DNA from: Alphaproteobacteria bacterium
GTDB taxonomy: Bacteria > Pseudomonadota > Alphaproteobacteria > UBA6615
Assembly (NCBI GenBank): GCA_965261975.1
Contig: CBDHEC010000056.1
Span: forward strand, 105,572-169,571
Reading direction: 5' to 3'
Length of the DNA stretch: 64,000 nucleotides
The position numbers were made by a program, and so were the translations under genes. Below, piece after piece: positions 1 through 35,091 of this stretch. The number at the start of each line of letters is the position of its first letter. The first letter of the stretch is position 1. The notes beneath the pieces were generated by a model. It was not told the DNA's origin. It saw only the letters and a list, made by a program, of their open reading frames with translations, and ran no database searches.

Positions 1-45
1 TATCCAGAGTAGGTCGTATTCGAGCTCCCACCAACCCAAATTCCT

Positions 46-156
46 CTAGCGAAAAGTGCTGCATCGGGCGTCGGCTGCGAGCGTCTCAGCCAATTCGATA
101 CCGGACACGAGGGCGCCGAAGGGGCCGTCTGGCGGATCGACGGAGAGCTTGCTCAT
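46..156 (-). pseudogene. Possible N-terminal stub of a TauD/TfdA-like dioxygenase (36 aa)
   Basis: Manual translation MSKLSVDPPDGPFGALVSGIELAETLAADAR..., resembling the TauD N-terminus (GAxVxGxDL). It stops at TAG as the sequence becomes less GC-rich. Confidence 0.3.
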
Positions 157-290
157 ACACCGATACTAACACCGACAGACACCGCCGGTTCGCCCCCCGA
201 ACTTCAACCTGTCGCCGGGCGTTTCCCTGTGTGGGGTGGTCGCGGTAGTCTGGTGCCAACAAACAAGATTACCTCCCGGGAGTAAAGTTG

Positions 291-1661
291 ATGGCGCGCA
301 CATTGATCAAGGGCGGCTGGGTCGTGTCGATGGACGATGCGATCGGCGATATTCGCGGCGGCGACGTGCTGATCGAGGACGACCGGATCGTCGAGGTCGG
401 CCGCAACATCGACGCCGGCGATGCGGAAGTGATCGACGCGTCCAACATGATCGTCAGCCCCGGCATCGTGAATGCGCACGAGCACACCTGGCAGACCGGG
501 GTGCGCGGGGTCGTCGCCGACTGGACGATGTTCGAATACTCCACCCTGATGCACGCGACGTCGGTGCCTCACTTCACGCCCGACGACATCCGCCTGGCGA
601 ACCTCTGCGGCGCGCTGAACCAGATCAACTGCGGCAGCACCACGCTGTTCGACTGGCATCACTGCAACGCCACGACGGATCACACGGACGCCGCGATCGA
701 CGCGCTGGAGGAATCGGGCATCCGCGCCGTCTATGGTCATGGCCAGACCAAGACCGCGTCCAAGCCCGGTGAGCCGCCGTTCAACGAGACCCCGCACTCG
801 CGCGAACGGGTCGAGCGGCTCCGCAAGGGGCGGCTCGCTTCGGACGACGGGCTGATCACCATGGCCATATGCATCCAGGGGATGGGTTTCTCGGTCTGGG
901 AATGCTTCGAGCACGACGTTCGTCTGGCCCGGGACATGGGCCTCTACTGGTCGAACCACACGGGTGCACAGGGAATTCCGCTGTTCTCCGAGGGTTCGGT
1001 GCACAAGCTGAATGATCTCGGCCTGCTCGGTCCGGATGCCGACTTCGTCCATGCGACCAACCTGACCGACGACGAGATGAAGATGATCATCGATGCCGGC
1101 GGCTCGATCACCGTCGCGGCCGAGTGCGAGAGCAACTTCGGCCATGGCAACCCGGTGACCGGCCGGGTGCTCGGTTTCGGCGGTACGCCGGCCTTCGGGG
1201 TGGATCTGCAGTCGAACGTCTCCGGCGACATGTTCTCGGTCGTGCGTTATGCGCTGCAGTTCGAGCGAGCCATGTACACGGACGATCGGCCGCGCCCGAC
1301 CAAGGCGATGCCCGAGCATCTGAAAACGCGTGTCGCGCTTGAATGGGCGACGATCGACAACGCCCGGGCGCTCGGGCTTGACGACCGGATCGGCTCGCTG
1401 ACGCCCGGCAAGCAGGCGGACGTGATCCTCGTGCGTGGCGACGACCTCAACACCTGCCCGGTGCATGACCCGGTCCAGACGCTGATCTTCATGGCCACGC
1501 CGTCGAACGTGGACACGGTCTTCGTCAACGGCGAGGTGAAGAAACGCGACGGCAAGCTGGTCTACCCGGAAGCCGCGCTGCGTGAGACCCTGGGCAAGCT
1601 CGCCGAGTCCGGCCGCCGTATCCTCGATGCCGCCGGTGTGATGCAAGCGGCGGCGGAATAG
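291..1661 (+). CDS. Amidohydrolase family protein (chlorohydrolase/deaminase-like)
   Basis: TLIKGGWVVSMD N-terminus, PGIVNAHEH metal-binding HxH, VHAT, GVD, C-terminal GSLTPGKQAD; GGAG RBS upstream. Confidence 0.88.
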   Translation: MARTLIKGGWVVSMDDAIGDIRGGDVLIEDDRIVEVGRNIDAGDAEVIDASNMIVSPGIVNAHEHTWQTGVRGVVADWTMFEYSTLMHATSVPHFTPDDIRLANLCGALNQINCGSTTLFDWHHCNATTDHTDAAIDALEESGIRAVYGHGQTKTASKPGEPPFNETPHSRERVERLRKGRLASDDGLITMAICIQGMGFSVWECFEHDVRLARDMGLYWSNHTGAQGIPLFSEGSVHKLNDLGLLGPDADFVHATNLTDDEMKMIIDAGGSITVAAECESNFGHGNPVTGRVLGFGGTPAFGVDLQSNVSGDMFSVVRYALQFERAMYTDDRPRPTKAMPEHLKTRVALEWATIDNARALGLDDRIGSLTPGKQADVILVRGDDLNTCPVHDPVQTLIFMATPSNVDTVFVNGEVKKRDGKLVYPEAALRETLGKLAESGRRILDAAGVMQAAAE

Positions 1662-1684
1662 GTGCGGGGCAGGGTCGAAACATC

Positions 1685-2851
1685 GTGACCGCCAACCGAT
1701 GGATGGTGCTTGGTGCGCTTTTCCTGGCGCGCTCGGCGCTGGGCTATCACTTCCAGTCCGTCGCGTCGGTCTCGCCGCTGCTGGTCGAGGACCTTGGTAT
1801 CGACTTCACCGCAGTTGGTACCCTGATCGGTCTTTTCAGCCTGCTCGGGGTTCTGACGGCCCTGCCGTCGGGCTTCCTCGCCCAGCGCTTTGGCGAGCGC
1901 CGGGTATGCCTGTCCGGCCTCGCGATGATGACGGCGGGCGGCTTCGTGATGTGGCTGGGCGACGACTTCGCCACGATCAGTGTCGGCCGGATGATCGCCG
2001 GCACCGGTGGGGTGGTGATCACGGTCGTCATGGTGAAGATCGTCGGCGACTTGTTCGAAGGTAAGGAAGTGGTCACCGCCATGGCCATCCTGATGAACAG
2101 CTGGCCGGTGGGTATCGCCATCGGCCTCTACACCCAGGGCGCCATGGCCGAAGCCTGGGGCTGGCAGGCGGTTTTCCTGACGGCGGGTATCGGCTCTCTC
2201 GTCGGCATGTTGCTGGTCGCCATCCTGTACCGGCCGGCGGCACGTAACGTCTCGCGGCCTCTGCAGCGCCTGGCGATCACCCGGGCCGAGGCCACCAGGG
2301 TCTCGCTCGCGGGGATCGTCTGGGTGCTCTACAACGCCGGTTACCTGATGGTGCTGTCCTTCGGGCCCGCCATGCTGGTGTTGCGCGGCATGGATGTCGT
2401 GGCGGCGGGCCTGCTGCTTGCCAACGCCACCTTTGTCTACATGTTCGCGATTCCGCTGGGGGGCTGGGTATCCGAGAAGCTGGCACGGCCGAACCTGGTC
2501 ATGGTGGCCTGCTTTGCGCTCGGGGCGTTGATGGTCGCCCTCGTGCCCCTCGTCGACGCACCTCTGCTGCTGTTCATCATGGCGGCGATCTTCATCGGCA
2601 TACCCACCGGCAACGTGATGGCGCTGACCGTCGAGACGGTACGGGCCGAGCACCGCAACACGGGCACCGGCCTGTATCACACCTGGAACCATGCGGGCCT
2701 GTTCGTCGGGCCGGCGCTCGCGGGTTGGATCGTCACCCGGACCGGTGACCCGGCGACGGCCATGTTCTTTGGTGGCGTGACAATGGTCCTCGCCATCGTC
2801 GCGCTGGGGGCGCTGCGGTTCTTGCAATGGCGCGAAGCCCGTGCCGTCTGA
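1685..2851 (+). CDS. MFS transporter
   Basis: About 12 hydrophobic segments; MFS motif-A-like GFLAQRFGERR; overlaps the next gene. Confidence 0.85.
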   Translation: MTANRWMVLGALFLARSALGYHFQSVASVSPLLVEDLGIDFTAVGTLIGLFSLLGVLTALPSGFLAQRFGERRVCLSGLAMMTAGGFVMWLGDDFATISVGRMIAGTGGVVITVVMVKIVGDLFEGKEVVTAMAILMNSWPVGIAIGLYTQGAMAEAWGWQAVFLTAGIGSLVGMLLVAILYRPAARNVSRPLQRLAITRAEATRVSLAGIVWVLYNAGYLMVLSFGPAMLVLRGMDVVAAGLLLANATFVYMFAIPLGGWVSEKLARPNLVMVACFALGALMVALVPLVDAPLLLFIMAAIFIGIPTGNVMALTVETVRAEHRNTGTGLYHTWNHAGLFVGPALAGWIVTRTGDPATAMFFGGVTMVLAIVALGALRFLQWREARAV

Positions 2852-3527
2852 ACCGAGCCTCGGTGTCGTCATTCCCGCGTTGAATGTGGGGGCGGGCCTC
2901 GCGCGTACGCTCGAAGGCCTGGCGGCGGCGCGGGACATCTTCGATCTGGACATCCTGGTGGTGGATGGCGGCTCCGATGACGACACGGTCGCGGTGGCCA
3001 AATCTCTGGGCGCGCGGGTGATCGAGGCGCCGAGAGGCCGCGGCACCCAGCTGGCCGCCGGGGCCGACCAGGTGCGTGGCGACTGGCTGTTGTTCCTGCA
3101 TGCCGACACGGTTCTCGGGGCGGGCTGGGCGGTCGAGCTGGCGGCGTTCATGATCGCCGAGCGCCACCGCGCCGCCTATTTCCGCTTCCGGCTCGACGAT
3201 GATGCGCCCGGCGCGCGACGGATCGAGCGGCTGGTGGCGTGGCGTTGCCGGGTGCTGGGCCTGCCCTATGGCGATCAGGGCCTGGCGATCCCGCGCGATC
3301 TCTACACGGCGTTCGGCGGCTATCCCGACCAACCGCTGATGGAGGATGTCTATCTTGCGCGTAGGATGGGCCGCAGCCGGCTGGCGGGGCTGGAAACGGC
3401 GGCGTTGACGTCCGCCGTGCGTTATCGCGAAGGTGGCTACTGGCGCCGCCCATCGCGGAACCTGTTCTGCCTGTTTCTGTATCTCATGGGCATGCCGGCG
3501 CGGATGATTGACCAGATCTACAGATGA
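2841..3527 (+). CDS. GT2 glycosyltransferase, TIGR04283-like (rSAM/selenodomain-associated, arsenosugar-type)
   Basis: VVIPALN, VVDGGSDD, GRGTQL, FLHADT, PYGDQG, PLMEDV, TSAVRY motifs. Confidence 0.88.
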   Translation: MPSEPSLGVVIPALNVGAGLARTLEGLAAARDIFDLDILVVDGGSDDDTVAVAKSLGARVIEAPRGRGTQLAAGADQVRGDWLLFLHADTVLGAGWAVELAAFMIAERHRAAYFRFRLDDDAPGARRIERLVAWRCRVLGLPYGDQGLAIPRDLYTAFGGYPDQPLMEDVYLARRMGRSRLAGLETAALTSAVRYREGGYWRRPSRNLFCLFLYLMGMPARMIDQIYR

Positions 3528-4132
3528 AGCCCCATCTCGTCATCTTTGCCCGCGCGCCCCGGCGCGGCGCGGTCAAGCGGCGGCTGGCCGCGGATATCGG
3601 GGATGGTCCCGCGCTCGCCTTCTATCGCCGGACCCTGCATGACGTGACGCGGCGGCTGGGCAGCGATCCGCGCTGGCGTACCTGGCTGGCGGTCACGCCG
3701 GATGGAGATGCCCTGCGGCCAGGCCTTTGGCCAGCCGTGCCCGGGGTCGGATTGATCCCGCAGGGCCAGGGTGATCTGGGTGCACGCATGGCCCGGCCGA
3801 TGACGATGCTCCCCCCGGGCCCGGTGATCGTCGTCGGCACGGACATCCCCGACATTTCGGCAGACCATATCGCCGACGGGTTTGCGGCACTCGGCAACCA
3901 TGAGTTTGTCTTCGGTCCGGCAGCCGATGGCGGTTACTGGTTGGTCGGCGCACGCCGGCGCCCGGCGATGTCCGGAAGGATATTCCGCGACGTCCGCTGG
4001 AGCACCGAGCATGCCCTGGCCGATACCCTCGCGGGTCTGCCGGGGAAGGCCCGCGTGGCGATGCTGGATGAGCTCGATGATGTGGACGATGGCGCGGCCT
4101 GGGCCGCGTGGCGTGCACGCCGCCGCCCGTGA
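3524..4132 (+). CDS. DUF2064/TIGR04282-like transferase (GT-A/CofC-like fold)
   Basis: IFARAP..G.VKRRLA, QGQGDLGARM, VGTDIP, FGPAADGGYWLVG, VRWST, LDDVDD; ATGA overlap with the upstream gene. Confidence 0.88.
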   Translation: MKPHLVIFARAPRRGAVKRRLAADIGDGPALAFYRRTLHDVTRRLGSDPRWRTWLAVTPDGDALRPGLWPAVPGVGLIPQGQGDLGARMARPMTMLPPGPVIVVGTDIPDISADHIADGFAALGNHEFVFGPAADGGYWLVGARRRPAMSGRIFRDVRWSTEHALADTLAGLPGKARVAMLDELDDVDDGAAWAAWRARRRP

Positions 4133-4222
4133 CGAAATAGTTGTCAACAAACCGTGACGTGACTTCCGGTCTGTTCCGTACGACATGGTGACCGCTACAA
4201 TCGCGGTCCCAGCGGGGAAAGC

Positions 4223-5263
4223 ATGGAATCGATCTACTACGTCATCTCGTGGCTCTGCCACCGGCGCTGTGCGCATTGCTACGACACGCGCTTTCGCCCC
4301 TATGTGCGCGATGAACGCGACGCCGTGGTGGGCGAGGCGGTGACGAACCATGCGAAGATCGTGGCCAATCTGCCCGACCGCATGACCTATCGCGAAAGCG
4401 ATGACGGCCCGGAGAAACCGGGGCGTGTCATCCTGTCAGGGGGCGAGGTGCTGCTCGACGAGATTCGCGAGCCGGTGCTCTATCCGGTGATGGACATGCT
4501 GCGCGAGAAGTACGCCGACGCGGGCGGGGTGCGGGTGGTGGTGCAGACGACCGGCGATCTGGTCACCGCGGAAATTCTCGACGAGCTGCTGGCCCACGGC
4601 CTGTGGCAACTCTCGATCACGGGTATGGACGATTTCCATGTTGGCCATGAAGGCGACAAGCGCGTGCCCCTGATGGAACATCTGACGGGTCTGGTCGAGG
4701 CGGCGGGCTTGTTGCCGACGGGTCGGCGCCATGACGGCACCGACGGGCGGGGTAGCGAGACGCCTGTCTATTCCTTCATGGGGGCGAACCCGGAAGAGTG
4801 GATCGGGCCGATCTGGCCGCGCGGGCGGGCCTGGGAGAACGAACTCTCAAGCGCGACCCTCGACGATAATTTCTGCAACCGCTGGTCGGGCGGGCTCAAC
4901 TTCATGAACCATGGAAAGATCGGTTCCGAGGTGTCGATCGAGCCCAACGGCAATGTCTATCCCTGCTGCCTCAAGACCAAGGCGCCGCTCGGCAACCTCA
5001 CCGAGGAACCGCTCACGGAGATTCTGGACAGCCTCGTCGGCCACCCGGCGTTCGAGGCGCTCAATGACGGCGCGCCGGAACGCATGGGCCTGGCCTTTGG
5101 CTGGGACGAGGACACCTTCCGCAAGAACAGCGAAACCAAGACGCCTTCGGGCGAGACCTACCGCAACCTTTGTATCGGCTGCGATCGGTTCCACGATCAG
5201 GTACTTGGCCCGCTCATCGAAGGCCTGCGCCAGGCGCGTCTGAGCCGGCGGACGGCCGCATGA
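4223..5263 (+). CDS. Radical SAM protein with SPASM/twitch-like domain
   Basis: C12-x3-C16-x2-C19 (CHRRCAHC), LSGGE motif, C-terminal FCNRW...IEPNGNVYPCC...LGNL...CIGC. Confidence 0.88.
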   Translation: MESIYYVISWLCHRRCAHCYDTRFRPYVRDERDAVVGEAVTNHAKIVANLPDRMTYRESDDGPEKPGRVILSGGEVLLDEIREPVLYPVMDMLREKYADAGGVRVVVQTTGDLVTAEILDELLAHGLWQLSITGMDDFHVGHEGDKRVPLMEHLTGLVEAAGLLPTGRRHDGTDGRGSETPVYSFMGANPEEWIGPIWPRGRAWENELSSATLDDNFCNRWSGGLNFMNHGKIGSEVSIEPNGNVYPCCLKTKAPLGNLTEEPLTEILDSLVGHPAFEALNDGAPERMGLAFGWDEDTFRKNSETKTPSGETYRNLCIGCDRFHDQVLGPLIEGLRQARLSRRTAA

Positions 5264-6336
5264 GCCGCCGGATAGAAGGCGTGTGTGGGGCCCTGGCCCA
5301 GCGTCTCGGCGTGCCGGTCACGGATCTACACCCTTTGCCGGATACGGGCCTCGCCCATGATCATGTCCGGATCGGCGATACGGGCACCCTGGCGCGGGTG
5401 CCCAAGCAGAGCCAGCTCGGCCTCGCAGCGGCGGAGAATCTAGATTATCAGGCCGCCTGTTTCGCACGTGCCTCGGCGAGCGGGCATGTGCCCCATCTGC
5501 ATGAAAAGTTATCGCCCGACGGCGCACTGCCCATGGGCGCATTGATCGTCGATCTGATCGACGGACGGCCGCTGTCTCTGCCGGGCGATTTGGCGGCGAT
5601 GGCCGAATGCCTGGCGGCGATCCATGGGATGCCCCTACCGGAAGTGGATGGCCGCGCGCCGTTGAAGGATCCGGTCGATCCGATGGCCGATACGTTCACG
5701 GAAATCATGACCCAGGCGGCTTATGTCGCGGCGGCGGAACTGCACCCGGATGCCGAATCCCAGATTCGCGAGGAGTTGCAGGTGGCCGGCGCGACCCTGG
5801 CCCGCGACGCCCGCCCGCCCCGGACGCTCATCGCGTTCGACGCCCATCCGGGAAACTACCTGATGACGTCGGGGGAGCTGGGGGATGACCGCGCGGTTCT
5901 GGTCGATCTGGAGAAGGCGCGGTATGGCGCGGCGGGTTTCGATCTGGCCCACGCCACCCTCTACACCTCGACCACCTGGGACGTGGACAGCCATGCGGTG
6001 CTGGACCGCGGCCAGGTGGATGATTTTCATGGGGCGTGGCTCGACGCTGTGCCCGGAGAACTCGCCACGGCGACCGAACCGTGGCTGCAGCCGCTGCGCC
6101 GCATGATGTGGCTCTGGTCCGTGACCTGGTGTGCCAAATGGCGTGTCGAGTCCCGCGAGACCGTGGCGACCGAACCGAAAGAAAATGAGTCTACCGAGAA
6201 CTGGTCGGCCGAACTCAGCGAAGACGCGCTCGTCGCCCATGTGGCCGGCCGCGTCGCCGATTATCTCGACCCCGACACCATCACCCGCGTTCGCGCCGAC
6301 TGGGCGCCAACGGCACCGGCCGCCGTTGCGGTCTAA
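5260..6336 (+). CDS. APH/choline kinase-like phosphotransferase
   Basis: LAAIH, AFDAHPGNYL (Brenner-like motif), LVDLEK, GFDLA; ATGA overlap with the rSAM stop. Confidence 0.78.
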   Translation: MSRRIEGVCGALAQRLGVPVTDLHPLPDTGLAHDHVRIGDTGTLARVPKQSQLGLAAAENLDYQAACFARASASGHVPHLHEKLSPDGALPMGALIVDLIDGRPLSLPGDLAAMAECLAAIHGMPLPEVDGRAPLKDPVDPMADTFTEIMTQAAYVAAAELHPDAESQIREELQVAGATLARDARPPRTLIAFDAHPGNYLMTSGELGDDRAVLVDLEKARYGAAGFDLAHATLYTSTTWDVDSHAVLDRGQVDDFHGAWLDAVPGELATATEPWLQPLRRMMWLWSVTWCAKWRVESRETVATEPKENESTENWSAELSEDALVAHVAGRVADYLDPDTITRVRADWAPTAPAAVAV

Positions 6337-6358
6337 CCAACATGAAAGAGGACCACAG

Positions 6359-7561
6359 ATGCGTATCCTGACAGCGGCATTGGCCGGTTTCCTGGCGCTC
6401 GCGCCGCTCACCGCAAGCTCGGCGATGGCCCAGAGCTGGAACGAGGTGGTCGACAAGGCGCGCGGGCAGCTCGTGTTCTGGAACGCCTGGGGCGGCGATG
6501 AACGTATCAACGCCTACATTGCCTGGGCGGGTGACCAGGTGCAGGCCCGCTACGGCGTGACGGTGCAGCATGTGAAGCTCGCCGATACGGCCGAGGCGGT
6601 AGCCCGGGTCGTGGCGGAGAAGGCCGCTGGCCGCAATGACGGCGGTTCGGTCGATCTCATCTGGATCAATGGCGAGAATTTCGCGGCGATGAAGCGAAAC
6701 AACCTGCTGTTCGGCCCGTGGACGCAGAATGCGCCGAACTATCGTTTCGTCGATACGGAGAACAAGAAGACCACGACCGTGGACTTCACGGTGCCGGTAG
6801 ACAATTTGGAGGCGCCCTGGGGCATGGCGCAGTTCGTGTTCATGCACGACACGGCGAATGTCGAAACGCCGCCGGACTCCATCCTGGGCCTGCTGGAGTG
6901 GGCGAAAAACAACCCTGGTCGTTTCACCTATCCCCAGCCGCCGAATTTCCTCGGCACCACTTTCCTCAAGCAGGCGCTGATCGAGCTCGTCGTCAGTCCG
7001 TCTGCACTCCAGGCGCCGGCGGCGAATGTGGCCGAGAACACGGCGCCGCTGTGGGCCTATCTCGATGCGCTGCATCCGCTGATGTGGCGGCGCGGCGAGG
7101 TCTATCCGCAGAACGGCCCGGCCCTGCTGCGGCTCCTCGACGATGGCGAAATCTCGATCGCGCTGTCGTTCGAGCCGGCCGAGGCGTCGGGCCTGATCGC
7201 CCAGGGTAAGCTACCCGACACGGTACGTACCTTCGTGCTCAACAACGGGACCATCGGCAACACGAATTTCGTTGCCATTCCCTTCAACGCCAACGCCAAG
7301 GAAGGGGCGATGGTGATGGCCAACTTCCTGATGTCACCCGAGGCCCAGGCCCACAAACAGAATCCTGAAGTGTGGGGCAGCTTCACGGTGCTCGATGTAA
7401 ACCGGCTGCCGGAGGACTCGAAGGCGGCGTTCCAGGATCTCGAGCTCGGGGTCGCGACCCTGTCGCCGGGAGAGCTCGGCATCACCCAGCTGGAGCCGCA
7501 TCCGTCCTGGGTTGCCGCGCTCGAGGCCGAGTGGGCCAAGCGCTACGCCAGCGGGAAATAG
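6359..7561 (+). CDS. ABC transporter substrate-binding protein, YnjB-like
   Basis: Signal peptide; V.WNAWGG, SVDLIWINGENF, GRFTYPQPPNFLGTTFLKQ, GTIGNTNFVAIPFNA, EPHPSW. Confidence 0.88.
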   Translation: MRILTAALAGFLALAPLTASSAMAQSWNEVVDKARGQLVFWNAWGGDERINAYIAWAGDQVQARYGVTVQHVKLADTAEAVARVVAEKAAGRNDGGSVDLIWINGENFAAMKRNNLLFGPWTQNAPNYRFVDTENKKTTTVDFTVPVDNLEAPWGMAQFVFMHDTANVETPPDSILGLLEWAKNNPGRFTYPQPPNFLGTTFLKQALIELVVSPSALQAPAANVAENTAPLWAYLDALHPLMWRRGEVYPQNGPALLRLLDDGEISIALSFEPAEASGLIAQGKLPDTVRTFVLNNGTIGNTNFVAIPFNANAKEGAMVMANFLMSPEAQAHKQNPEVWGSFTVLDVNRLPEDSKAAFQDLELGVATLSPGELGITQLEPHPSWVAALEAEWAKRYASGK

Positions 7562-7566
7562 CCGCG

Positions 7567-9264
7567 ATGGGGGCGTCCTCGCCTTTGCGTTGGGTGCCCG
7601 TGGTGACCCTGCTGTTGCTGCTGGGGCCGGTGGTAGCCGGCCTGCTCGGCACGCTGTTTCCCGCCTTCGGCTATCTGCCCGCGTTGGGCCGCACGACGTT
7701 CAGCCTGGAGCCGTGGCGGGCGCTGTTTGCGGCACCCGGCGTGGCGGAATCGATCCGGCTGTCCTTCGTGACCGGGCTGGCCGTCACGGTCGTATCGTTT
7801 GCCGTGGTCATCCTGTTCGTCGCCGGCTGGCACGGCACGCGTTCCTTCGCGCGGGTCCAGAAGCTGCTCTCGCCGCTGCTTTCGGTACCCCATGTGACCG
7901 TCGCGTTCGGGCTGGCGTTTCTGTTGGCCCCGTCGGGCTGGATCTTCCGCCTGACCTCGCCCTGGCTGACCGGTTATGACCGGCCGCCGGATTTGATTAT
8001 CGTCCAGGACCCGGACGGTCTGGCGCTGATCGCCGGGCTGGTCGTGAAGGAAATCCCGTTTCTTTTTTTGATGACCCTGGCCGCGATCGGGCAGGTGGAT
8101 GCCGCCCGGGTTCGGACCATGGCCCGCACCCTGGGTTACGGCACTATCGCGGCCTGGCTGAAGGCGGTGTTTCCGCTGGTCTATCGCCAGATACGCCTGC
8201 CGGTCTTCGCCGTCCTGGCGTTTGCCGCCTCGGTGGTGGATGTCTCGGTGGTGCTCGCCCCCTCGACCCCGCCGCCGTTCGCCGTTCAGCTGGTGCGCTG
8301 GTTCAATGATCCAGACCTGGCGCTGCGATTCGTGGCGTCGGCGGGGGCGCTGGTTCAGCTCGGCCTCGTGGTCGCGGCGATCTTCGTCTGGTGGCTGGGT
8401 GAACGCGTGGTGGCCTGTCTCGGCCGTGTCTGGATCCGCGCGGGCAGCCGCGGGCGGCGCGATTTCCCACTGCGCGTTGCCGCCGCCACAGCATTGACGG
8501 CGAGTTTCCTGGCGGCGTTCCTCGGTCTGGCAAGCATGGCGCTGTGGTCGATCGCCGGGCGCTGGCGGTTCCCCGATCCGCTGCCGTCGACCCTTTCGCT
8601 CGACGCCTGGACGACCAACGCCGACCGGCTGACAAATGCCACATTGAACACCGCGACCATCGGGATCGCCGCCGCACTGGTGGGGCTGGCGCTTACGGTG
8701 GGTTGTCTGGAGAACGAGGCACGGTTCGGCAAACGCGCCACGAACCGGGCGTTGTGGCTGCTCTATGTGCCATTGCTGGTGCCCCAGATCGCCTTCCTGT
8801 TCGGCACCCAGATCCTGCTGGTGATGAGCGATCTGGACGGCGCCTGGATCGCGGTCGCCTGGGCCCATCTGGTGTTCGTGCTGCCCTATGTCTTTCTGTC
8901 GCTCGCCGATCCCTACCGGGCCTGGGATGCACGTTACGCCCGGGCGGCGTTGTGTCTGGGCGCGTCACCGCTGCGGGTGTTCTGCCGGGTCAAGCTGCCG
9001 ATGCTGTTGCGGCCAATCCTGATCGCCGCCGCCGTCGGGTTCACGGTCTCGATGGGTCAGTATCTGCCGACATTGTTCGCCGGCGCGGGGCGCGTCGACA
9101 CGTTGACCACGGAAGCGGTATCCCTGGCGTCGGGAGCCGACAGGCGCGCCATCGGCGCCTACGCGCTGCTGCAGATGATCCTGCCGTTTATCGCCTTCGG
9201 GCTGGCGGCGGCCGCGCCGGCATGGCTGTTCCGCAACCGGCGCGGCCTGACGGTTACGGCCTGA
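7567..9264 (+). CDS. ABC transporter double-domain permease, YnjC-like
   Basis: Hydrophobic with two permease halves; LLSVPH, KEIPF, QYLPTLFAGAGR, TLTTEAV. Confidence 0.86.
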   Translation: MGASSPLRWVPVVTLLLLLGPVVAGLLGTLFPAFGYLPALGRTTFSLEPWRALFAAPGVAESIRLSFVTGLAVTVVSFAVVILFVAGWHGTRSFARVQKLLSPLLSVPHVTVAFGLAFLLAPSGWIFRLTSPWLTGYDRPPDLIIVQDPDGLALIAGLVVKEIPFLFLMTLAAIGQVDAARVRTMARTLGYGTIAAWLKAVFPLVYRQIRLPVFAVLAFAASVVDVSVVLAPSTPPPFAVQLVRWFNDPDLALRFVASAGALVQLGLVVAAIFVWWLGERVVACLGRVWIRAGSRGRRDFPLRVAAATALTASFLAAFLGLASMALWSIAGRWRFPDPLPSTLSLDAWTTNADRLTNATLNTATIGIAAALVGLALTVGCLENEARFGKRATNRALWLLYVPLLVPQIAFLFGTQILLVMSDLDGAWIAVAWAHLVFVLPYVFLSLADPYRAWDARYARAALCLGASPLRVFCRVKLPMLLRPILIAAAVGFTVSMGQYLPTLFAGAGRVDTLTTEAVSLASGADRRAIGAYALLQMILPFIAFGLAAAAPAWLFRNRRGLTVTA

Positions 9265-9341
9265 TGCTCGTGGCTTGACAGGCTGGCCTCCGAACGGGCC
9301 CACTGCGGCCAACAACAGACGATCATCCCCGGGGAGAAATC

Positions 9342-9995
9342 ATGAAGTTATTCGGCTACTGGCGCTCACTCGCCGCGTTTCGAGTACGTATCGCGCTCAA
9401 CCTCAAGGGCCAGCCCTTCGAGGTCGTCTCGACCGACCTGATCAAGGGCGAGCAGTTCGACCCGGAATATCTCAAGATCAACCCCCAGGGCGTTGTGCCG
9501 GCGCTGGTGACCGATGACGGGAACGCGCTGACCCAGTCGATGGCGATCCTCGAATATCTCGACGAGACCTATCCCGAGCCGGCCCTGCTGCCGACCGATG
9601 CCATGGCCCGTGCGCGGGTCCGGTCGCTGTGCATGATCCTGGTGGCGGACATGCACCCGCTGGTGGTGCCGCGGATCCGCAAATACATCACCCAGGATTG
9701 GGGCCATAGCGAGGAAGAACTCGCCGCGTGGATCGGCAACTGGACCAAGCTCGGGCTTGCCGCGATCGAGAAGCACCTGGTCGAAGACGGTACGTCGGGC
9801 AAATATTGTGAAGGCGATCAGGTGACCCTGGCCGACCTCTGCCTGGTGCCCCAGGTGGGTGCGGCGACCCTGTTCAAGATCCCGCTGGACGACTATCCGA
9901 ACTGCGTGCGCATCTTCAAGACATGCATGGAGAACCCGGCCTTCTTCGACGCGCGGCCGCAGGCCCAGCCGGACTTCCCCGAGGACATGAAGTAG
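9342..9995 (+). CDS. maiA: Maleylacetoacetate/maleylpyruvate isomerase (GST zeta class)
   Basis: LFGYWRSLAAFRVRIALNLKG, INPQGVVPAL, LTQSMAILEYL, C-terminal P..QPD. Confidence 0.85.
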   Translation: MKLFGYWRSLAAFRVRIALNLKGQPFEVVSTDLIKGEQFDPEYLKINPQGVVPALVTDDGNALTQSMAILEYLDETYPEPALLPTDAMARARVRSLCMILVADMHPLVVPRIRKYITQDWGHSEEELAAWIGNWTKLGLAAIEKHLVEDGTSGKYCEGDQVTLADLCLVPQVGAATLFKIPLDDYPNCVRIFKTCMENPAFFDARPQAQPDFPEDMK

Positions 9996-10007
9996 AAAAC
10001 GGAAACC

Positions 10008-10029
10008 GGGCGGCTCAGCCGCCCTTTTT
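10008..10029 (+). terminator. Putative intrinsic terminator of maiA
   Basis: GGGCGGC-TCA-GCCGCCC stem-loop followed by TTTTT. Confidence 0.55.
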
Positions 10030-10638
10030 CTGAGCCCCCGCCGCGTCCATCAGCTGTTCCAGCACCTCGTAGGGCTGGGCGCCGACGACGCCCTTGGCGT
10101 CGGCTACATAGGTCGGAACGCCGGTCACACCATACTGGCGGGATTTTTCCCAGTCCGCGTCGATCGCGGCCTCGAAGGTGCGTTTCTCCAGCACCTCGCG
10201 CGCGGCGGCACCATCGAGCCCGACCCCTTCGGCGATCTCCACCAGGAGATCGGCATCGCCGATGTTCTTGGCGTCGACGAAATAGGCCTCGTAGAGCTTC
10301 ATGTGGATGGCATCGCCGCCCGGCTGGGTGTCGGCCCACTTGCCGAGCTCCTGGGCCAGCCGGCTGTTGTAGGTGTGGGTGCGCTTGCCGTAGGGCAGGC
10401 CTTCCTCGTCCATCCGCGCCTTCATGTTCTGGTACATGGCGTCGAGATCGACATCGCGGCCGGCGAAAAGCTGTTCCAGCGACTGGCCGTCGGCCGGCGT
10501 GTCGGGATGCAGCGGGAAGTGAACGGTCTGGATGTCGACGTCGTAGGCCTGGCGGAGTTTTTCAACACGCACGGTGCTGAGGTAACACCAGGGTCAAACG
10601 TAGTCGGCGAAGACCTCAAGGGTCACGGGATCGGACAT
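10015..10638 (-). CDS. DsbA/FrnE-like thiol oxidoreductase, predicted selenoprotein (U15-P-W-C18)
   Basis: ATG at 10638 with AAGGA RBS. Reads MSDPVTLEVFADYV-TGA-PWCYLSTVRVEK in frame with the 10015..10572 ORF, which carries FPLHPDTP, GVTGVPT and GAQP. Confidence 0.88.
10562..10580 (-). promoter_or_regulatory. Candidate bacterial SECIS hairpin
   Basis: UCAGCAC-CGUGC-GUGUUGA, a 7-bp stem whose loop starts 20 nt after the UGA and has G at its second position. Confidence 0.6.
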
Positions 10639-10733
10639 GGTTGGATTCCTTCGTGTGAGACGGCCTGCACCATAGCAGAGACAGGGCCGGGCGCGATAAC
10701 ATTGCCGGGACCTCTCACACCCCGGAGCCCGAT

Positions 10734-11177
10734 ATGACCGACCACACGATCCCGTCCCGCAAGCTCACCCATGATGGCATCCGTGCCCTAATTGATGCTG
10801 CCGTGGCCAAGGCCGACGAGATGGGGGTGCCCATGGGCATCGCCGTGGCCAATGACGGCGCGCGGATCGTCGGCTATCTCCTGATGGACGGCGCGCGCGT
10901 GCTGGCCCAGGACTCCGCCAGCGCCAAGGCGATGACGGCGGCGAGCCACCGCATGCCGACCCACGCCATCGATTACAATATCGGCATGGGCCTGTCGGTC
11001 TCGACGCAAGGCAAGGTGCTGCCGCTGCGCGGCGGCGTGCCGATCATCATCGACGGCTATTGCGTCGGCGGCATCGGCTGCGGCTCGGGCACGGGCGAAG
11101 AGGACCTCGTGGTGGCCAAGGCCGCGCTGGCGGCGATCGGCGCGGAGATTCCCGACGACGACGCCAGCGAGGGCTAG
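10734..11177 (+). CDS. GlcG/HbpS family heme-binding protein
   Basis: AAVAKA.EMGVPMGIAV, MDGA, KAMTA, GGVPIIIDG..VGGIG.GSG...ED. Confidence 0.85.
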   Translation: MTDHTIPSRKLTHDGIRALIDAAVAKADEMGVPMGIAVANDGARIVGYLLMDGARVLAQDSASAKAMTAASHRMPTHAIDYNIGMGLSVSTQGKVLPLRGGVPIIIDGYCVGGIGCGSGTGEEDLVVAKAALAAIGAEIPDDDASEG

Positions 11178-12359
11178 GCGGCGTCGCGCCGGACCATCAC
11201 CACGAAGAAAAGCCAGGACAGGGTGGTGCAGCCGAGCATCAGCAGGCCGAGCTGCAGGAAAGAGGTCTGGACGAGGCTGGCCACCGCCAGGGTGCTCGCG
11301 AAACCGGCGCTCATCTGAATGAAGCCGCCCAGCGCCGCGGCGGAACCGGCGGTTGGAGGTGCGACCGCCGTGAGGGCGCCCGCCAGGCTGTTCGGCACCA
11401 GGAAGCCCGAGCCCCAGGAGTAGATGAACATCGGCACGATCAACGTGTAGGGCGTGTCGAGACCCATGAGCGCCAGCACCACCGTCGCGCCCGTTCCGGC
11501 AATCGCCAGGAGGCCGCCGATCGAGATCATCCGGGCCCGCGAGACCCGCTGCGCCAGCCGGCTGGAGATATAGTTGCCGATGATGTAGCCGGCCGGCGTC
11601 GACAGGATGAAGAAACCGAACGCCTCGGGGGGTGACGCCCATGACCACGATGAAGGCGATGGGAGTCCCGGCGATGAAGGCCTGGAAGGTGGCGCCCATC
11701 GCGCCGGTGCTCAGGCTGTAGCCCATGAAACGGGTCATGCGCGCGAGGCGCAGATAGGTCAGCGCGAGAGCGCCGGGACGGGTGTATTTGCGGGCCTCGG
11801 GCGGCAATGTTTCGCGCAGCGTCATCAGTGTCGCGAGCAGCACGCCGGCGCCGAGCAGCGCGGTGGCCAGGAAATTCGACTGCCAGCCGAAACGCACCTC
11901 GAGCTGCCCGCCGATCAGCGGCGCGACCATGGGGGCAACCGCGAGGGACATGCCCAGATAGGCCATGGCCCGCGTGGCGGCGGGCCCGTCGGTGGTGTCG
12001 CGCACGATGGCACGCGAAATGACGATGCAGGTGCAGCCACCGATTGCCTGAACCACCCGGGCGGCAATGAGGAAGGTGATGTTCGGCGCCAGCGCGCAGG
12101 CCAGGCCGCCGAGGGTGAAAAGGACCAGACCCGTGATCAGCGGCCGGCGCCGTCCGATCGCATCGGACAGCGGGCCGACCACCAGCTGCGCCAGCGCGAA
12201 GGCGCCGAGATAGACAGACACGGTCATCTGGGCGAGCGCCTGGCTGGTGTCGAGATGTTCCGCGATGGACGGCAGGGACGGCAAGAAGATCGTGATGGCC
12301 ACCTGGCTGGCCACCATCAGCGACACCAGCAGGGCGATCGGGGCAGGCTGATCCGTCAT
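11174..12359 (-). pseudogene. Bcr/CflA family MFS efflux transporter, frameshifted
   Basis: IFLPSLPSIA, GPLSDAIGRR, ARVVQAIGG. The frame breaks at a G6 run (11627-11632); removing one base restores VTPEAFGFFIL and joins the 11174..11530 ORF. Confidence 0.8.
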
Positions 12360-12473
12360 GGATATTGATGTCCCGGCTGGGATGTCGCGAGGGGCGGTTG
12401 ATGGCCCGAGTTGACCATTGCACTCGGCTGTCTTACCCCGCAGGGTAATGCCAAACGGGGGAGAAGAGGAACC

Positions 12474-13664
12474 ATGTCCAACGCAACCGACCAATGCGAT
12501 ACACGCACACGCTCCGGGCCCTTGGTGGGCCTCAAGGTGGTGGAACTGGCGGGGATCGGCCCCGGGCCCTTCGCGGCGATGCTGCTGGCCGACCTGGGCG
12601 CCGACGTCATCAAGATCGACCGCCCGGCCGATGCGGGCCTCGGGGTACCACGGGGTGCGGAGTTCGATCTGGCGACCCGCTCGCGACCTTCTGTTGCCGT
12701 CGATCTGAAGAACCCCGACGGCGTCGAGACCGTGCTGCGGCTGGTCGAGAGCGCCGACGTGCTGATCGAGCCCTATCGCCCGGGCGTGACCGAGAAACTC
12801 GGCCTCGGCCCGGACGAGTGCATGGCCCGCAACCCGAAGCTGGTCTATGCGCGCATGACCGGGTTCGGCGGGACGGGCACCCTGGCCAAGGCGGCGGGCC
12901 ATGACATCAACTACATCTCGCTATCGGGCGCGCTGCACGCGATCGGCGGCAAGGACAAGCCGACCCCGCCGCTCAACCTGATCGGCGATTATGGCGGGGG
13001 CGCGCTGTATCTCGCCTTCGGCGTCATGGCGGCGGTCTATGAGGCGCGCAGCAGCGGCGAGGGCCAGGTTGTGGATGTGGGCATGGTCGACGGCGCGGCG
13101 AGCCTGATGATCCCGGTGATCGGGTTGCACGCGTCGGGTTACTTCACCGACGAGCGCGCCTCGAACATCCTCGATGGCGGGGCACCCTTCTATGACGCAT
13201 TCGAATGCGCCGACGGGAAGTTCGTCTCCATCGGTTCCATCGAGAAAAAATTCTACGCCATCCTGCTCGACAAGCTCGGCCTTGCCGACGCGGACCTGCC
13301 GGACCAGATGGACCGGGAACGCTGGCCCGAACTCAAGGCACGCTTTGCCAAGGTGATCGCGACCAAGACCCGCGACGAATGGGTCGAGATCATGGAGGGG
13401 ACCGATGTTTGTTTCGCGCCGGTGATGTCCATGACCGAGGCGCATACACATCCCCACAACGTGGCCCGCGGCAACTTCGTCGAGGTGGCGGGAATCACCC
13501 AGCCGGGGGCGGCGCCGAAGTTTTCGCGCACACCCGGCAAGATCCACTCGCCGCCGTCGGTGCCCGGCGAGCATACCGAGGAGGCGCTCGCCGCCTGGGG
13601 GCTGCCGGCGGACGACATCGCGACGCTGAAGGCCGCGGGCGCGATTGGGCGAAAAGAGAGCTAG
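12474..13664 (+). CDS. CaiB/BaiF CoA-transferase (alpha-methylacyl-CoA racemase-like)
   Basis: GLKVVELAGIGPGPFAAMLLADLGADV, AGHDINY, NLIGDYGGG, LDGGAPFY. Confidence 0.9.
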   Translation: MSNATDQCDTRTRSGPLVGLKVVELAGIGPGPFAAMLLADLGADVIKIDRPADAGLGVPRGAEFDLATRSRPSVAVDLKNPDGVETVLRLVESADVLIEPYRPGVTEKLGLGPDECMARNPKLVYARMTGFGGTGTLAKAAGHDINYISLSGALHAIGGKDKPTPPLNLIGDYGGGALYLAFGVMAAVYEARSSGEGQVVDVGMVDGAASLMIPVIGLHASGYFTDERASNILDGGAPFYDAFECADGKFVSIGSIEKKFYAILLDKLGLADADLPDQMDRERWPELKARFAKVIATKTRDEWVEIMEGTDVCFAPVMSMTEAHTHPHNVARGNFVEVAGITQPGAAPKFSRTPGKIHSPPSVPGEHTEEALAAWGLPADDIATLKAAGAIGRKES

Positions 13665-18279: not shown

Positions 18280-18762
18280 TTAGCTGGCGGCGCGAAGCGT
18301 CTCGGTGGCGGTAAAGCCGGTCTCGATCAACAAGGCGTAGATGGCATCCGGGCTGTCGGAACCACGCAGCTTGTCGCAAAAGGCCCGGTCGCGCATGATT
18401 CGCGAGACCCGCGCGAGCGCCTTCAGGTGGTCGGCGCCGGCACCCTCTGGGGCAAGCAGCAGAAACACCAGATCCACCGGCTCATCGTCGATCGCATCGA
18501 AATCCACGGGCTTCTCGAGACGTGCGAACACGCCCTGCAAATGGCCGAGCCCGGGCAGTTTGCCATGGGGTATCGCAAGGCCGGCGCCCACACCGGTCGA
18601 GCCCAGGCGTTCGCGTTCGACCAGGATATCGAACACCCGGCGCGCATCGGTTTTGAGGATTTCGCCCGCGGCTTTCGACAGTTCCTGCAGGACCTGTTTC
18701 TTGCTGGTCGCATGCAGGTCGGCGATGACGCTGCCCGGTTCGAGAATGTCTTCGATATTCAT
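18280..18762 (-). CDS. ptsN: PTS IIA-like nitrogen regulatory protein
   Basis: SKKQVL, RERLGSTG.G.G.AIPH, HLKALARVSR; follows hpf/rpoN. Confidence 0.93.
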   Translation of the reverse strand: MNIEDILEPGSVIADLHATSKKQVLQELSKAAGEILKTDARRVFDILVERERLGSTGVGAGLAIPHGKLPGLGHLQGVFARLEKPVDFDAIDDEPVDLVFLLLAPEGAGADHLKALARVSRIMRDRAFCDKLRGSDSPDAIYALLIETGFTATETLRAAS

Positions 18763-18772
18763 GAGCTGTCCG

Positions 18773-19366
18773 TTAGGCCTCATTGTCCGGGCTGTCCGGC
18801 GCATCGATCCAGCCGACATTGCCGTCTGCGCGGCGGAAAACCACGCTCATGCCGCCATGTTTGGCATTGCGGAAAACCAGCGCGTGTCCGTCCGCCAGGT
18901 CCATGCGCATCACGGCCTCCGAGACCGTCAGGCTTTCGACCGAGGTCTGGTTCTCGGCGATGATCACCGGATTGTCGTCGGTCGGGACGTCATCGGACAT
19001 ATCCTCGTCGCCGGCATAGGGCGCGATGACATATTCGGGCATCGTCGGGGTGCTGATCGTTTCGCGATCCTGGTGATGATCGCGCAGGCGTCGCTTGTGG
19101 CGCCGCAGCCGTTTGGCCAGATGCGCCAGGGCCACGTCGAAGGCCGCGTAGGGATCATCGGCTTCCTCATGGGCGCGCACGTGAATGCCGCGGCCTACAT
19201 GCATGTTGATGTTGGCGCGGATTCGATAGGCTTCGCGCGACAACACCACGCTCGCGTCGACGGCGTCGGCGAAATACTTGTCCGTCGTATCGGTGATCGC
19301 GTCCTCGATATGGGAACGCAACGCGTCGCCCACATCGATCTGCTGTCCTGTCACATTGATTTGCAC
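18773..19366 (-). CDS. hpf: Ribosome hibernation promoting factor (long HPF/RaiA)
   Basis: MQINVTG..IDVG.ALR, KRLRRHKRRL, C-terminal VFRRADGNVGWID. Confidence 0.92.
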   Translation of the reverse strand: MQINVTGQQIDVGDALRSHIEDAITDTTDKYFADAVDASVVLSREAYRIRANINMHVGRGIHVRAHEEADDPYAAFDVALAHLAKRLRRHKRRLRDHHQDRETISTPTMPEYVIAPYAGDEDMSDDVPTDDNPVIIAENQTSVESLTVSEAVMRMDLADGHALVFRNAKHGGMSVVFRRADGNVGWIDAPDSPDNEA

Positions 19367-19542
19367 GGTTTGGAACGCCGTCTGTCGTTAGAAAAACTAG
19401 TCTCGGGGCCGCCATTGGGTGGCCTCGTTATTCAACGCTTCGTTTCTTGTTGTACGTGTGACCTGCATCAATGCTGGTCGCGACGCTGCTTGTCTTTTGT
19501 TCGTACCGACCGTCTATCGCGCGGTCTCGCTTTGCGGCGCGG

Positions 19543-19571
19543 AACTTAGTCAGGCGCCGGGTGAGTGTCAA
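19543..19571 (-). promoter_or_regulatory. Sigma70-like promoter for hpf-ptsN
   Basis: TTGACA-N17-TAAGTT on the minus strand. Confidence 0.5.
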
Positions 19572-19647
19572 TACGGGCGGTAGCCTGTATCAGCGAGATG
19601 GGAAGATGGGTCGATTTTTCAAGTAACAGTCTGGGACTAAACGAGAA

Positions 19648-21123: not shown

Positions 21124-21135
21124 GGTTAACGTCTT

Positions 21136-23449: not shown

Positions 23450-23456
23450 GCCGTGT

Positions 23457-27150: not shown

Positions 27151-27355
27151 GGCGCTCGGTCCCGACACTGGAAGGAGATCGCCTTATAGCACCCGGTTTC
27201 GCGCCGGGGTATGGGATTGCACATGCATGCATACCGTAATCTGCACCCTGTTTTTGGCATTCGAAACATCCGGTCCGGGCATGTTGTCCTGGCGGCCGGA
27301 GATGCTAGTGTCCGGCGATAATCTGACTCGGTAGGTATCTGAAAACGAGGGCAGC

Positions 27356-35025: not shown

Positions 35026-35091
35026 ATCCCGCACACGCGCTCGGTTTTGGTTAACCGGGCGTTTGGAAATTTGAGAGACAACGGAACCGAT

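Follow-up and report, generated by a model that had tools for sequence, protein, structure and literature searches.

What do seven co-directional genes accomplish together when a radical S-adenosylmethionine (SAM) enzyme of no named family is wedged between two transferase genes that carry an arsenosugar label and a kinase gene followed by an importer? The question is raised by positions 1685 to 9264 of the 64,000-nucleotide stretch of DNA from a marine alphaproteobacterium analyzed here (the window, meaning the whole stretch), where the layout of open reading frames (ORFs) places seven genes, from a major facilitator superfamily (MFS) transporter to a YnjC-like permease, all on the + strand. 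A preliminary description of this DNA had singled out seven same-strand genes with overlapping ends, and their coordinates are confirmed, with overlaps at the junctions between the MFS gene and a family 2 glycosyltransferase (GT2) (11 nucleotides [nt]), between GT2 and a DUF2064 gene (4 nt), and between the radical SAM and kinase genes (4 nt, ATGA). We find that the operon is real and uncharacterized and that it is not an ArsS arsenosugar cluster. Two modules make it up: module A comprises the kinase, the DUF2064 (TIGR04282) protein, and the GT2 (TIGR04283), and module B comprises a SPASM/twitch radical SAM enzyme with YnjB and YnjC. With modest confidence, we read the cluster as one functional unit in which these two conserved modules are interleaved, covering import, radical change, phosphorylation, nucleotide activation, and transfer. 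The tight packing with its three overlapping junctions and the intact catalytic residues of the radical SAM enzyme and the kinase argue for this reading. What was observed is the order of the genes, the families to which they belong, the catalytic residues and folds of their products, and their linkage across lineages.

The radical SAM enzyme (positions 4223 to 5263, + strand) carries a CX3CX2C motif at C12/C16/C19 and a partial SPASM match (PF13186, 32.7 bits against a cut-off of 21.5, profile positions 7 to 45 of 67 only). Its match to Radical_SAM (PF04055, 25.7 bits) is under the Pfam gathering score of 29.5, and membership in the superfamily is borne out by the motif and by a fold that matches radical SAM structures at Z scores of 11 to 17. 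The best solved matches to its AlphaFold model (pLDDT 92.4) are the epimerase EpeE (Z 17.1, root mean square deviation [rmsd] 3.6 over 254 residues at 13% identity) and BtrN, a twitch dehydrogenase (Z 15.1, rmsd 3.1 over 217 residues), followed by sactipeptide and ranthipeptide enzymes, viperins, and anSME. EpeE, BtrN, anSME, and viperin are hydrogen-abstracting twitch/SPASM types. The best solved relatives are only 13 to 17% identical, which makes the window protein a SPASM/twitch-type enzyme to which no characterized protein is closely related. It resembles EpeE and BtrN in fold over nearly its whole length and in having extra conserved cysteines after the barrel, but differs from them in its low identity, in having five conserved auxiliary cysteines only, in the absence of a peptide-substrate gene nearby, and in having an importer as its genomic partner. 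The cysteines invariant across 59 aligned sequences are C12, C16, C19, C218, C248, C249, C317, and C320; in this alignment, the five outside the SAM motif would fit a single, twitch-like auxiliary cluster.

One refuting condition set beforehand was that this enzyme should belong to a characterized radical SAM family with an unrelated role, but it falls in no characterized family: it has no NCBIfam equivalog, no match to TIGR04167 (ArsS) at an E value of ≤0.001, and no solved relative by sequence at an E value of ≤1. More than 1,900 homologues were found at E ≤0.001 among the candidates scored, named only "radical SAM/SPASM domain-containing protein," and in the Protein Atlas the enzyme falls only in unnamed "Radical SAM/SPASM" clusters. 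A profile search of 1.84 billion representatives of 50%-identity clusters gave 444 matches at E ≤0.001, of which 112 reached E ≤1e-30, with ∼5 full-length radical SAM clusters among the best 150 matches listed. Members are 50 to 60% identical across phyla, and the N terminus MESIYYV..W.CHR.C.HCY is conserved from Alphaproteobacteria to Acidobacteria. Judged by these searches and alignments, the family is compact and has sharp bounds, and because it is compact, tightly conserved, and unnamed, it probably catalyzes one specific undescribed reaction.

The neighborhoods of this family identify its main partner. We mapped 96 rows (80 loci from species genomes and 16 from a sample of the class, described below; loci are designated here by L numbers) with tblastn, six-frame phmmer, and homology-weighted gene calls; L082 repeats L006, and one locus with no scoring ORF was dropped. 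Within 6 kb of the radical SAM gene, YnjB was found in 49/96 rows, YnjC in 43/96, the kinase in 29/96, DUF2064 in 25/96, GT2 in 23/96, and an ATP-binding cassette (ABC) ATPase in 20/96, and a YnjC homologue follows YnjB in 43 of the 96 loci. The window's clade accounts for 22 of the YnjB-adjacent rows, and the remaining 27 of the 49 are labeled Roseovarius, Roseomonas, Beijerinckiaceae, Burkholderiales/Rhodoferax, Betaproteobacteria, Gammaproteobacteria, and Verrucomicrobiota; four further loci end right after the radical SAM gene. The primary partner of the radical SAM enzyme is the YnjBC importer, not the transferase pair.

An uptake component beside the enzyme is a recurrent theme. A TonB-dependent receptor takes the place where ynjBC would be in a betaproteobacterial-like locus (L044), and a DUF2064 gene and a large outer-membrane barrel gene lie beside the radical SAM gene in acidobacterial L034, L052, and L067; other acidobacterial neighbors are an MFS gene, a pyridine-nucleotide disulfide oxidoreductase, and an AhpC-DsbD_N protein. 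L044, from a record titled as a Klebsiella pneumoniae metagenome-assembled genome (MAG), has several gene clusters in common, and in the same order, with L046 from a Rhodoferax MAG, and the label of L044 seems doubtful. No upstream regulator or enzyme was found in common among the mapped radical SAM loci, the neighbors varying by lineage. In other lineages these include TauD with Sulf_transp, a chromate transporter, MsrB, AhpC-DsbD_N, and a disulfide oxidoreductase, which gives the radical SAM neighborhoods a loose sulfur/oxyanion flavor. A TauE/SafE-type anion exporter gene (84 bits) lies between ynjB and ynjC in one subclade (L014 to L017, e.g., L015:11419-12177).

The importer itself is encoded by the last two genes of the seven. 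The YnjB-type periplasmic solute-binding protein (6359 to 7561, + strand) matches NF008633/PRK11622 at 545.2 bits against a cut-off of 203, over profile positions 4 to 396 of 397, and this model matches only E. coli among 14 control genomes; the ORF opens at 6131, and the start at 6359 was picked by its signal peptide. A search for solved relatives of this protein gave none at E ≤0.01. The YnjC-type protein (7567 to 9264, + strand) is a 565-amino-acid fused double permease of an ABC importer (BPD_transp_1, 32.8 bits) with weak matches of the PhnV/PotC/ModB type. The earlier assignment of a YnjBC importer thus stands for the binding protein and the permease, but the complete YnjBCD type, with binding protein, permease, and ATPase together, is not present in the window, the cluster having no ATPase gene. 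An ATPase gene follows YnjC in 20 of the 96 related radical SAM loci and in none of the window's clade. The best candidate in the genome is an orphan ATPase on another contig (C15:2286-2924, − strand; L135), 59% identical to a Roseovarius YnjD-like protein, the next-best match in the genome being 45% identical, and on this sequence similarity it is likely the missing ATPase of the window's YnjBC. The C15 gene shares 4 nt with the MFS gene downstream of it (1057 to 2283, − strand), which we considered as a paralogue of the window's MFS gene and rejected (21% identity, E 0.015). In one Roseovarius genome (L026, ∼2400 to 5000), two tandem YnjB-like ORFs (445 and 419 amino acids) lie between the kinase and ynjC.

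Module A begins with the transferase pair, for which the profile assignments proposed earlier were reproduced, both members scoring over cut-off. The GT2 (2841 to 3527, + strand) scores 199.9 bits on TIGR04283 against a cut-off of 182 (profile positions 1 to 221 of 221) and 69.1 bits on Glycos_transf_2. The DUF2064 protein (3524 to 4132, + strand), with a CofC/MobA-like nucleotidyltransferase fold, scores 140.6 bits on TIGR04282 against a cut-off of 134 (profile positions 1 to 185 of 189) and 104.4 bits on DUF2064 (PF09837); its gene is the only TIGR04282 copy found in the genome. The only solved relative is 3cgx, labeled "putative nucleotide-diphospho-sugar transferase" (E 2.1e-14), and the only other NCBIfam resemblance of DUF2064 relatives is to CofC.

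The kinase (5260 to 6336, + strand) has no Pfam or NCBIfam match of its own, even at an E value of 10. The earlier description of it as APH-like nevertheless survives in another form, because homologues carry PF01636, the predicted fold agrees, and the catalytic residues are invariant. Among more than 2,100 homologues, many have PF01636 in their precomputed annotation; D194, H196, N199, and D216 do not vary in the alignment, and conservation of K49 is ≥90%. The predicted model (pLDDT 89.1) is closest, by Foldseek, to choline/ethanolamine kinases and APH(2″) at a TM score of ∼0.55, and a single-sequence search of solved structures gave a borderline choline kinase match (E 0.004). The C-terminal lobe also contains eight invariant tryptophans. 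In choline kinases, an aromatic box holds the cationic substrate, and the invariant tryptophans hint at a choline-kinase-like box of this kind, which we take as a lead only.

A tree of 65 kinases, built by maximum likelihood with the quick search of IQ-TREE under LG+G4 and rooted at the midpoint solely for drawing, divides the family into two paralogous groups. The K2 clade (35 rows, SH-aLRT 99) contains every kinase beside a SPASM-type radical SAM enzyme or YnjB, together with four rows whose tracked partners are GT2 and DUF2064 only, and no K2 row in this tree lies next to an enzyme of the PA0069 family. The remaining kinases, K1, are the PA0069-linked ones; among them is the second copy in the window's genome, which lies on contig C26 and shares 42% identity with the window kinase. 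As placed in this tree, the window kinase appears to be a derived K2 paralogue. By neighbor, K1 kinases lie beside a PA0069-family radical SAM enzyme in 22/65 rows and K2 kinases beside the SPASM-type enzyme in 29/65, and in 14/65 rows there is no radical SAM gene within 3 kb. Of these 14, eight have just the pair, one has the pair plus YnjB, one has just YnjB, and four have none of the four components. On contig C26 (L116, C26:25000-43000), the K1 kinase (8410 to 9465, − strand) is directly upstream of a radical SAM gene (7145 to 8320, − strand) whose product belongs to the PA0069 family, with 505 bits on NF033668 and no transferase pair beside it.

To see how widely these components travel together, we turn to the class sample, which consists of 401 alphaproteobacterial genomes from 308 genera, including the window's own (G000); ArsS was counted over 391 of them. 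The radical SAM enzyme occurs in 17/401 genomes (11/308 genera), YnjB in 64/401, the kinase (E ≤1e-30) in 39/401, and TIGR04282 in 160/401, of which 124 are over cut-off (123/308 genera; this tally includes the unpublished genome G240). TIGR04282 is present in 15/17 radical-SAM genomes (10/11 genera) versus the 160/401 overall, and the two radical-SAM genomes without it are 74% and 80% complete. YnjB is present in 9/17 radical-SAM genomes and adjacent in 8/17 (6/11 genera). A TIGR04282 gene lies within ∼3.2 kb of the kinase for 22/43 kinase matches; among four further matches without listed coordinates, G281 proved adjacent once fetched, G150 and G384 have no pair within 3 kb, and G297 was not fetched. 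The kinase regularly accompanies the transferase pair whether or not the SPASM-type radical SAM enzyme is present, and most genomes with a kinase near TIGR04282 lack that enzyme.

The pair and the kinase come in several arrangements. The order GT2, DUF2064, kinase is found in L099, L114, L115, and L098; kinase, GT2, DUF2064 is the order in L102; and in L100, L101, and L105 to L113 the arrangement is divergent, DUF2064 and GT2 sharing a strand and the kinase lying on the opposite one. In the divergent form, a PA0069-family radical SAM gene (NF033668, 503 bits) stands after the kinase. These clusters resemble the window's in having the same kinase family, GT2, and DUF2064, with a radical SAM gene directly after the kinase, but their K1 kinase is joined to an unrelated radical SAM family, they have no importer, and they are embedded in housekeeping genes. 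The embedding is a block of conserved synteny in several alphaproteobacterial families (L100, L101, L105 to L111, and L113), with TPR, ETF-QO, UDG family 4, lytic transglycosylase, MoaB, DUF2064, and GT2 genes on one strand and the kinase, the PA0069 radical SAM enzyme, RNase HII, and CcrM on the other.

Whether the two modules belong together depends on genomes in which their parts meet in other ways. A check set beforehand asked whether the pair and ynjBC are accompanied elsewhere by radical SAM and kinase homologues, and they are, in other genomes and in several gene orders; the modules meet in four or more arrangements besides the window's. In L097 (G063; GT2 214.6 bits, DUF2064 132.8 bits), the pair is inserted between the radical SAM gene and ynjB but on the other strand, and it is divergent from a radical SAM-ynjBC unit in L037/L039 (GT2 264.7 bits). 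A gammaproteobacterial locus (L073) has the radical SAM gene, ynjB, ynjC, an ATPase, a disulfide oxidoreductase, GT2 (204.8 bits), and DUF2064 (142.3 bits), the pair being 5 kb downstream of the ATPase. The acidobacterial DUF2064 genes score 82 to 89 bits, below cut-off, and L067 has a TIGR04283 GT2 (203.6 bits) 7 kb away. Because all four components are linked pairwise in different lineages, orders, and strands, a functional connection is indicated rather than inherited order alone, and a functional link between the two modules is likely.

The most economical reading of the locus is a route of import, modification, phosphorylation, activation, and transfer, for which we infer the order of the steps, the direction of transport, and every substrate. 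YnjB and YnjC would take up a scavenged small molecule, powered by an ATPase encoded elsewhere, and the SPASM/twitch-type enzyme would alter the imported molecule. The choline-kinase/APH-fold kinase would then phosphorylate a hydroxyl group, the CofC/MobA-like DUF2064 protein would join the phosphate to a nucleotide, and the small TIGR04283 GT2 would transfer the activated group to an acceptor. Module A would thus be an activation line of the Kennedy/Lic kind, and the MFS transporter and an upstream amidohydrolase may be accessory parts specific to the window's clade. The export step of the preliminary description, which would fall to the MFS transporter, and its sugar, metalloid, or lipid head-group conjugate are guesses. 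LicA/LicC/LicD, with the permease LicB, and AmgK/MurU are activation lines of kinase, nucleotidyltransferase, and transferase. The cluster is like them in passing from a ChoK/APH-fold kinase to a nucleotidyltransferase to a transferase with an uptake system beside, a comparison of how they would work only; it is unlike them in using a DUF2064 nucleotidyltransferase and a GT2, for which no NCBIfam membership in those families was found.

Comparison with the ArsS (TIGR04167) "arsenosugar biosynthesis" cassette separates the window from its closest named counterpart. Both have the same two transferase families, over cut-offs, beside a radical SAM gene, but the window's radical SAM enzyme belongs to a different family, a kinase and an ABC importer are added, and no ArsS match (curated cut-off 300 bits) was found anywhere in the genome, which is 94.6% complete. 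The preliminary description held that the pair usually accompanies ArsS and that a different radical SAM enzyme and a kinase fill the ArsS slot here. The former fails in Alphaproteobacteria, where ArsS occurs in 5/391 genomes against 160/401 for TIGR04282, so that the pair is ∼30 times commoner. As to the latter, the radical SAM enzyme is indeed of another family, with no TIGR04167 match, but the kinase does not fill that slot, since it accompanies the pair regularly. The NCBI label "arsenosugar biosynthesis glycosyltransferase" looks too narrow for the pair, because Alphaproteobacteria mostly carry it without ArsS and with the kinase, and the rarity of ArsS in the class undercuts the arsenosugar part of that name.

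A wider and more tentative proposal, which we regard as possible rather than probable, is that the pair and the kinase form a general cassette for activating and attaching radical SAM products, coupled to three unrelated families (ArsS, the PA0069 type, and the SPASM/twitch type), of which the third would be fed by YnjBCD, and that marine and freshwater bacteria of several phyla scavenge a metabolite into a nucleotide-activated conjugate. If true, the scavenged metabolite could be a sulfur, selenium, or arsenic compound, or sugar-like, and the radical chemistry would be new.

Several observations weigh against reading the cluster as one functional unit. The pair adjoins the radical SAM gene in three genomes only (G000, G286 of the same family, and G063), is not adjacent to it in 12/15 radical-SAM genomes with the pair, and occurs without the SPASM-type enzyme in 145/160 TIGR04282 genomes. 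Eight of the 17 radical-SAM genomes have no YnjB match, G131 has YnjB on another contig, and the neighbors of the radical SAM gene in YnjB-less genomes are thiC, TauD, and a chromate transporter; the acidobacterial loci have no YnjB either. G133, a 100% complete genome of the window's family, has GT2, DUF2064, K2, YnjB, YnjC, and maiA without the radical SAM gene, and the radical step is therefore dispensable or optional. It is one of two cases of K2 with YnjB but no radical SAM gene, the other being G141, where they lie next to a ModA-like ABC system. In the window, maiA stands directly after YnjC in place of an ATPase gene, the kinase lacks any Pfam match of its own, and its profile found no solved structure at E ≤0.01. 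Finally, genomes that are related to one another do not count as independent samples; the figures given here therefore overstate the support, and we offer no formal test.

An alternative that would keep the locus closer to ArsS begins with adenosylation: the radical SAM enzyme would place the 5′-deoxyadenosyl group of SAM on an imported arsenic, selenium, sulfur, or phosphorus nucleophile, the amidohydrolase would deaminate the adenine, and the base would be removed; the kinase, acting as MtnK does, would phosphorylate the 5-substituted ribose at C1, and DUF2064 would make a nucleoside diphosphate-ribose derivative for transfer by the GT2. The pair lies within 7 kb of ArsS in 4/5 ArsS genomes, which makes a ribose-derived substrate for the pair plausible. 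The amidohydrolase is closest, below cut-off, to 5′-deoxyadenosine deaminase (E 2e-45), with solved relatives including the MTA/SAH deaminase 4f0r, and the sulfur/oxyanion-flavored neighbors of the radical SAM gene elsewhere (TauE, TauD with Sulf_transp, ChrA, AhpC-DsbD, and disulfide reductase) would suit such a nucleophile. We nonetheless consider this route unlikely: the enzyme has no TIGR04167 match and its fold neighbors are hydrogen abstractors, genes for a nucleosidase or a phosphorylase are absent from the cluster, no NCBIfam model, MtnK included, matches the kinase at E ≤0.001, and the amidohydrolase is found beside the cluster in the window's clade alone.

It is to a similar degree improbable that two or three unrelated units (MFS-GT2-DUF2064, radical SAM-kinase, and ynjBC) simply stand side by side through inherited order. 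The full seven-gene order is indeed confined to one clade (L001 to L019, L036, and L082), the pair and kinase could have stayed in their housekeeping synteny (ETF-QO, UDG, SLT, MoaB, RNase HII, and CcrM) by vertical descent alone, and a gap of 90 nt separates DUF2064 from the radical SAM gene. Yet each pairwise link recurs in other orders, strands, families, and phyla, the radical SAM gene is wedged between DUF2064 and the kinase, whose start it overlaps, and no terminator-like site was found in the intergenic gaps.

We give still less credence to by-product salvage, in which the kinase would phosphorylate 5-deoxyribose left from 5′-deoxyadenosine, the pair would dispose of or reuse the sugar, and the importer would be unrelated. 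Both kinase paralogues do lie directly beside radical SAM genes of unrelated families, in the 22/65 and 29/65 rows noted above, but isomerase and aldolase genes of the known 5-deoxyribose shunt are missing, 14/65 kinase rows have no radical SAM gene within 3 kb, and the tight link between the SPASM enzyme and uptake genes would be left unexplained. Salvage of thiamine or a precursor, with YnjBC as a ThiBPQ-like importer, a thiamine-kinase-like kinase, and a radical SAM enzyme that repairs or converts the precursor, is very unlikely: some kinase homologues are labeled "thiamine kinase-like enzyme," one K2 kinase matches the ThiK model (E 5e-4), and two genomes of the same genus (L087 and L091) carry the radical SAM gene in divergent orientation to thiC, but that ThiK match reaches 19 bits where the cut-off is 299, adjacency to thiC is confined to a single lineage, no thiamine pyrophosphate (TPP) riboswitch was found in positions 1 to 12000 of the window at E ≤1 or in five radical SAM-YnjB loci scanned, and the two found among seven related loci sit on the thiC side. 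These two TPP riboswitches (75 to 78 bits) are at L087 9772-9885 (− strand) and L091 11172-11291 (+ strand), on the thiC side of an intergenic region shared with the divergent radical SAM homologue.

The reading of the cluster as a single import-to-transfer unit bears on a long-orphan importer. The E. coli ydjXYZ-ynjABCD locus, with ynjE after it, encodes an orphan ABC importer that is like the window's in its YnjB (the window protein has 545 bits on the YnjB model) and in the fused double permease YnjC; the K-12 locus is unlike it in having the adjacent ATPase gene ynjD, DedA proteins, a ferredoxin-like protein, an AhpD-like protein, and a sulfurtransferase, and in lacking a radical SAM gene, a kinase, and the transferase pair. 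YnjB, YnjC, and YnjD are all annotated as "putative" in E. coli K-12, and because a conserved enzyme partner stands beside the importer here, the locus gives a handle on the YnjBCD ligand. Our search of the open-access literature, with subscription journals outside its reach, yielded no description of this radical SAM family, of a YnjB ligand, or of DUF2064. New here are the K1/K2 paralogy, the class-wide counts, the relative without the radical SAM gene, the missing ATPase and its candidate, the larger operon bounds set out below, and the frequency of ArsS. Cultured carriers of the radical SAM gene include several Roseovarius species, and the pathway is therefore testable at the bench; Roseovarius loci L023, L025, and L029 to L031 have the radical SAM-kinase-ynjBCD cluster.

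The transcription unit is probably larger than seven genes, running from the amidohydrolase (start at 288) to maiA (end at 9995). The amidohydrolase (288 to 1661, + strand) belongs to the NF006056/PRK08204 subfamily (537.7 bits against a cut-off of 391), its next-best models, 5′-deoxyadenosine deaminase and 8-oxoguanine deaminase, both being below their cut-offs. It ends 23 nt before the MFS gene (1685 to 2851, + strand), whose product scores 184.9 bits on MFS_1 and reaches no NCBIfam cut-off. Neither gene was found beside the cluster outside the window's own clade, in which the amidohydrolase adjoins it at 15 loci. At the other end, maiA (9342 to 9995, + strand), encoding maleylacetoacetate isomerase (GST zeta; TIGR01262, 243 bits against a cut-off of 171), starts 77 nt after YnjC and is found 3′ of it only in the window's clade and G133; it is possibly cotranscribed, and its tie to the pathway is doubtful. 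A terminator-like hairpin at 10008 to 10024, in which seven G-C pairs close a loop of 3 nt and a T-run follows on the + strand, probably ends the unit. It is the strongest, and the only strong one, of 10 such sites (versus 4.9 ± 2.1 in shuffles), and the same hairpin scan found none in the gaps between cluster genes. At E ≤1, Rfam gave no match in positions 1 to 12000 of the window except a chance-level C4 (25.5 bits, cut-off 45), and no RNA data set with the cluster was found among public sequencing runs, the sole full match of which may be the source sample.

Beyond the hairpin, a 704-amino-acid ORF on the − strand (10788 to 12902) matches Bcr/CflA MFS efflux models over residues 187 to 428 only; probably its listed start is too far upstream or two features have been merged. 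The flanks, annotated to 37104, offer no further clue to the operon's role. They carry housekeeping genes, among them ptsN, hpf, rpoN, lptB, kdsD, uppP, lipopolysaccharide glycosyltransferases, and thrS, with the cluster from ptsN, hpf, rpoN, and lptB to kdsD at 18280 to 24449 (− strand), uppP at 26347 to 27168, and thrS at 35047 to 37104.

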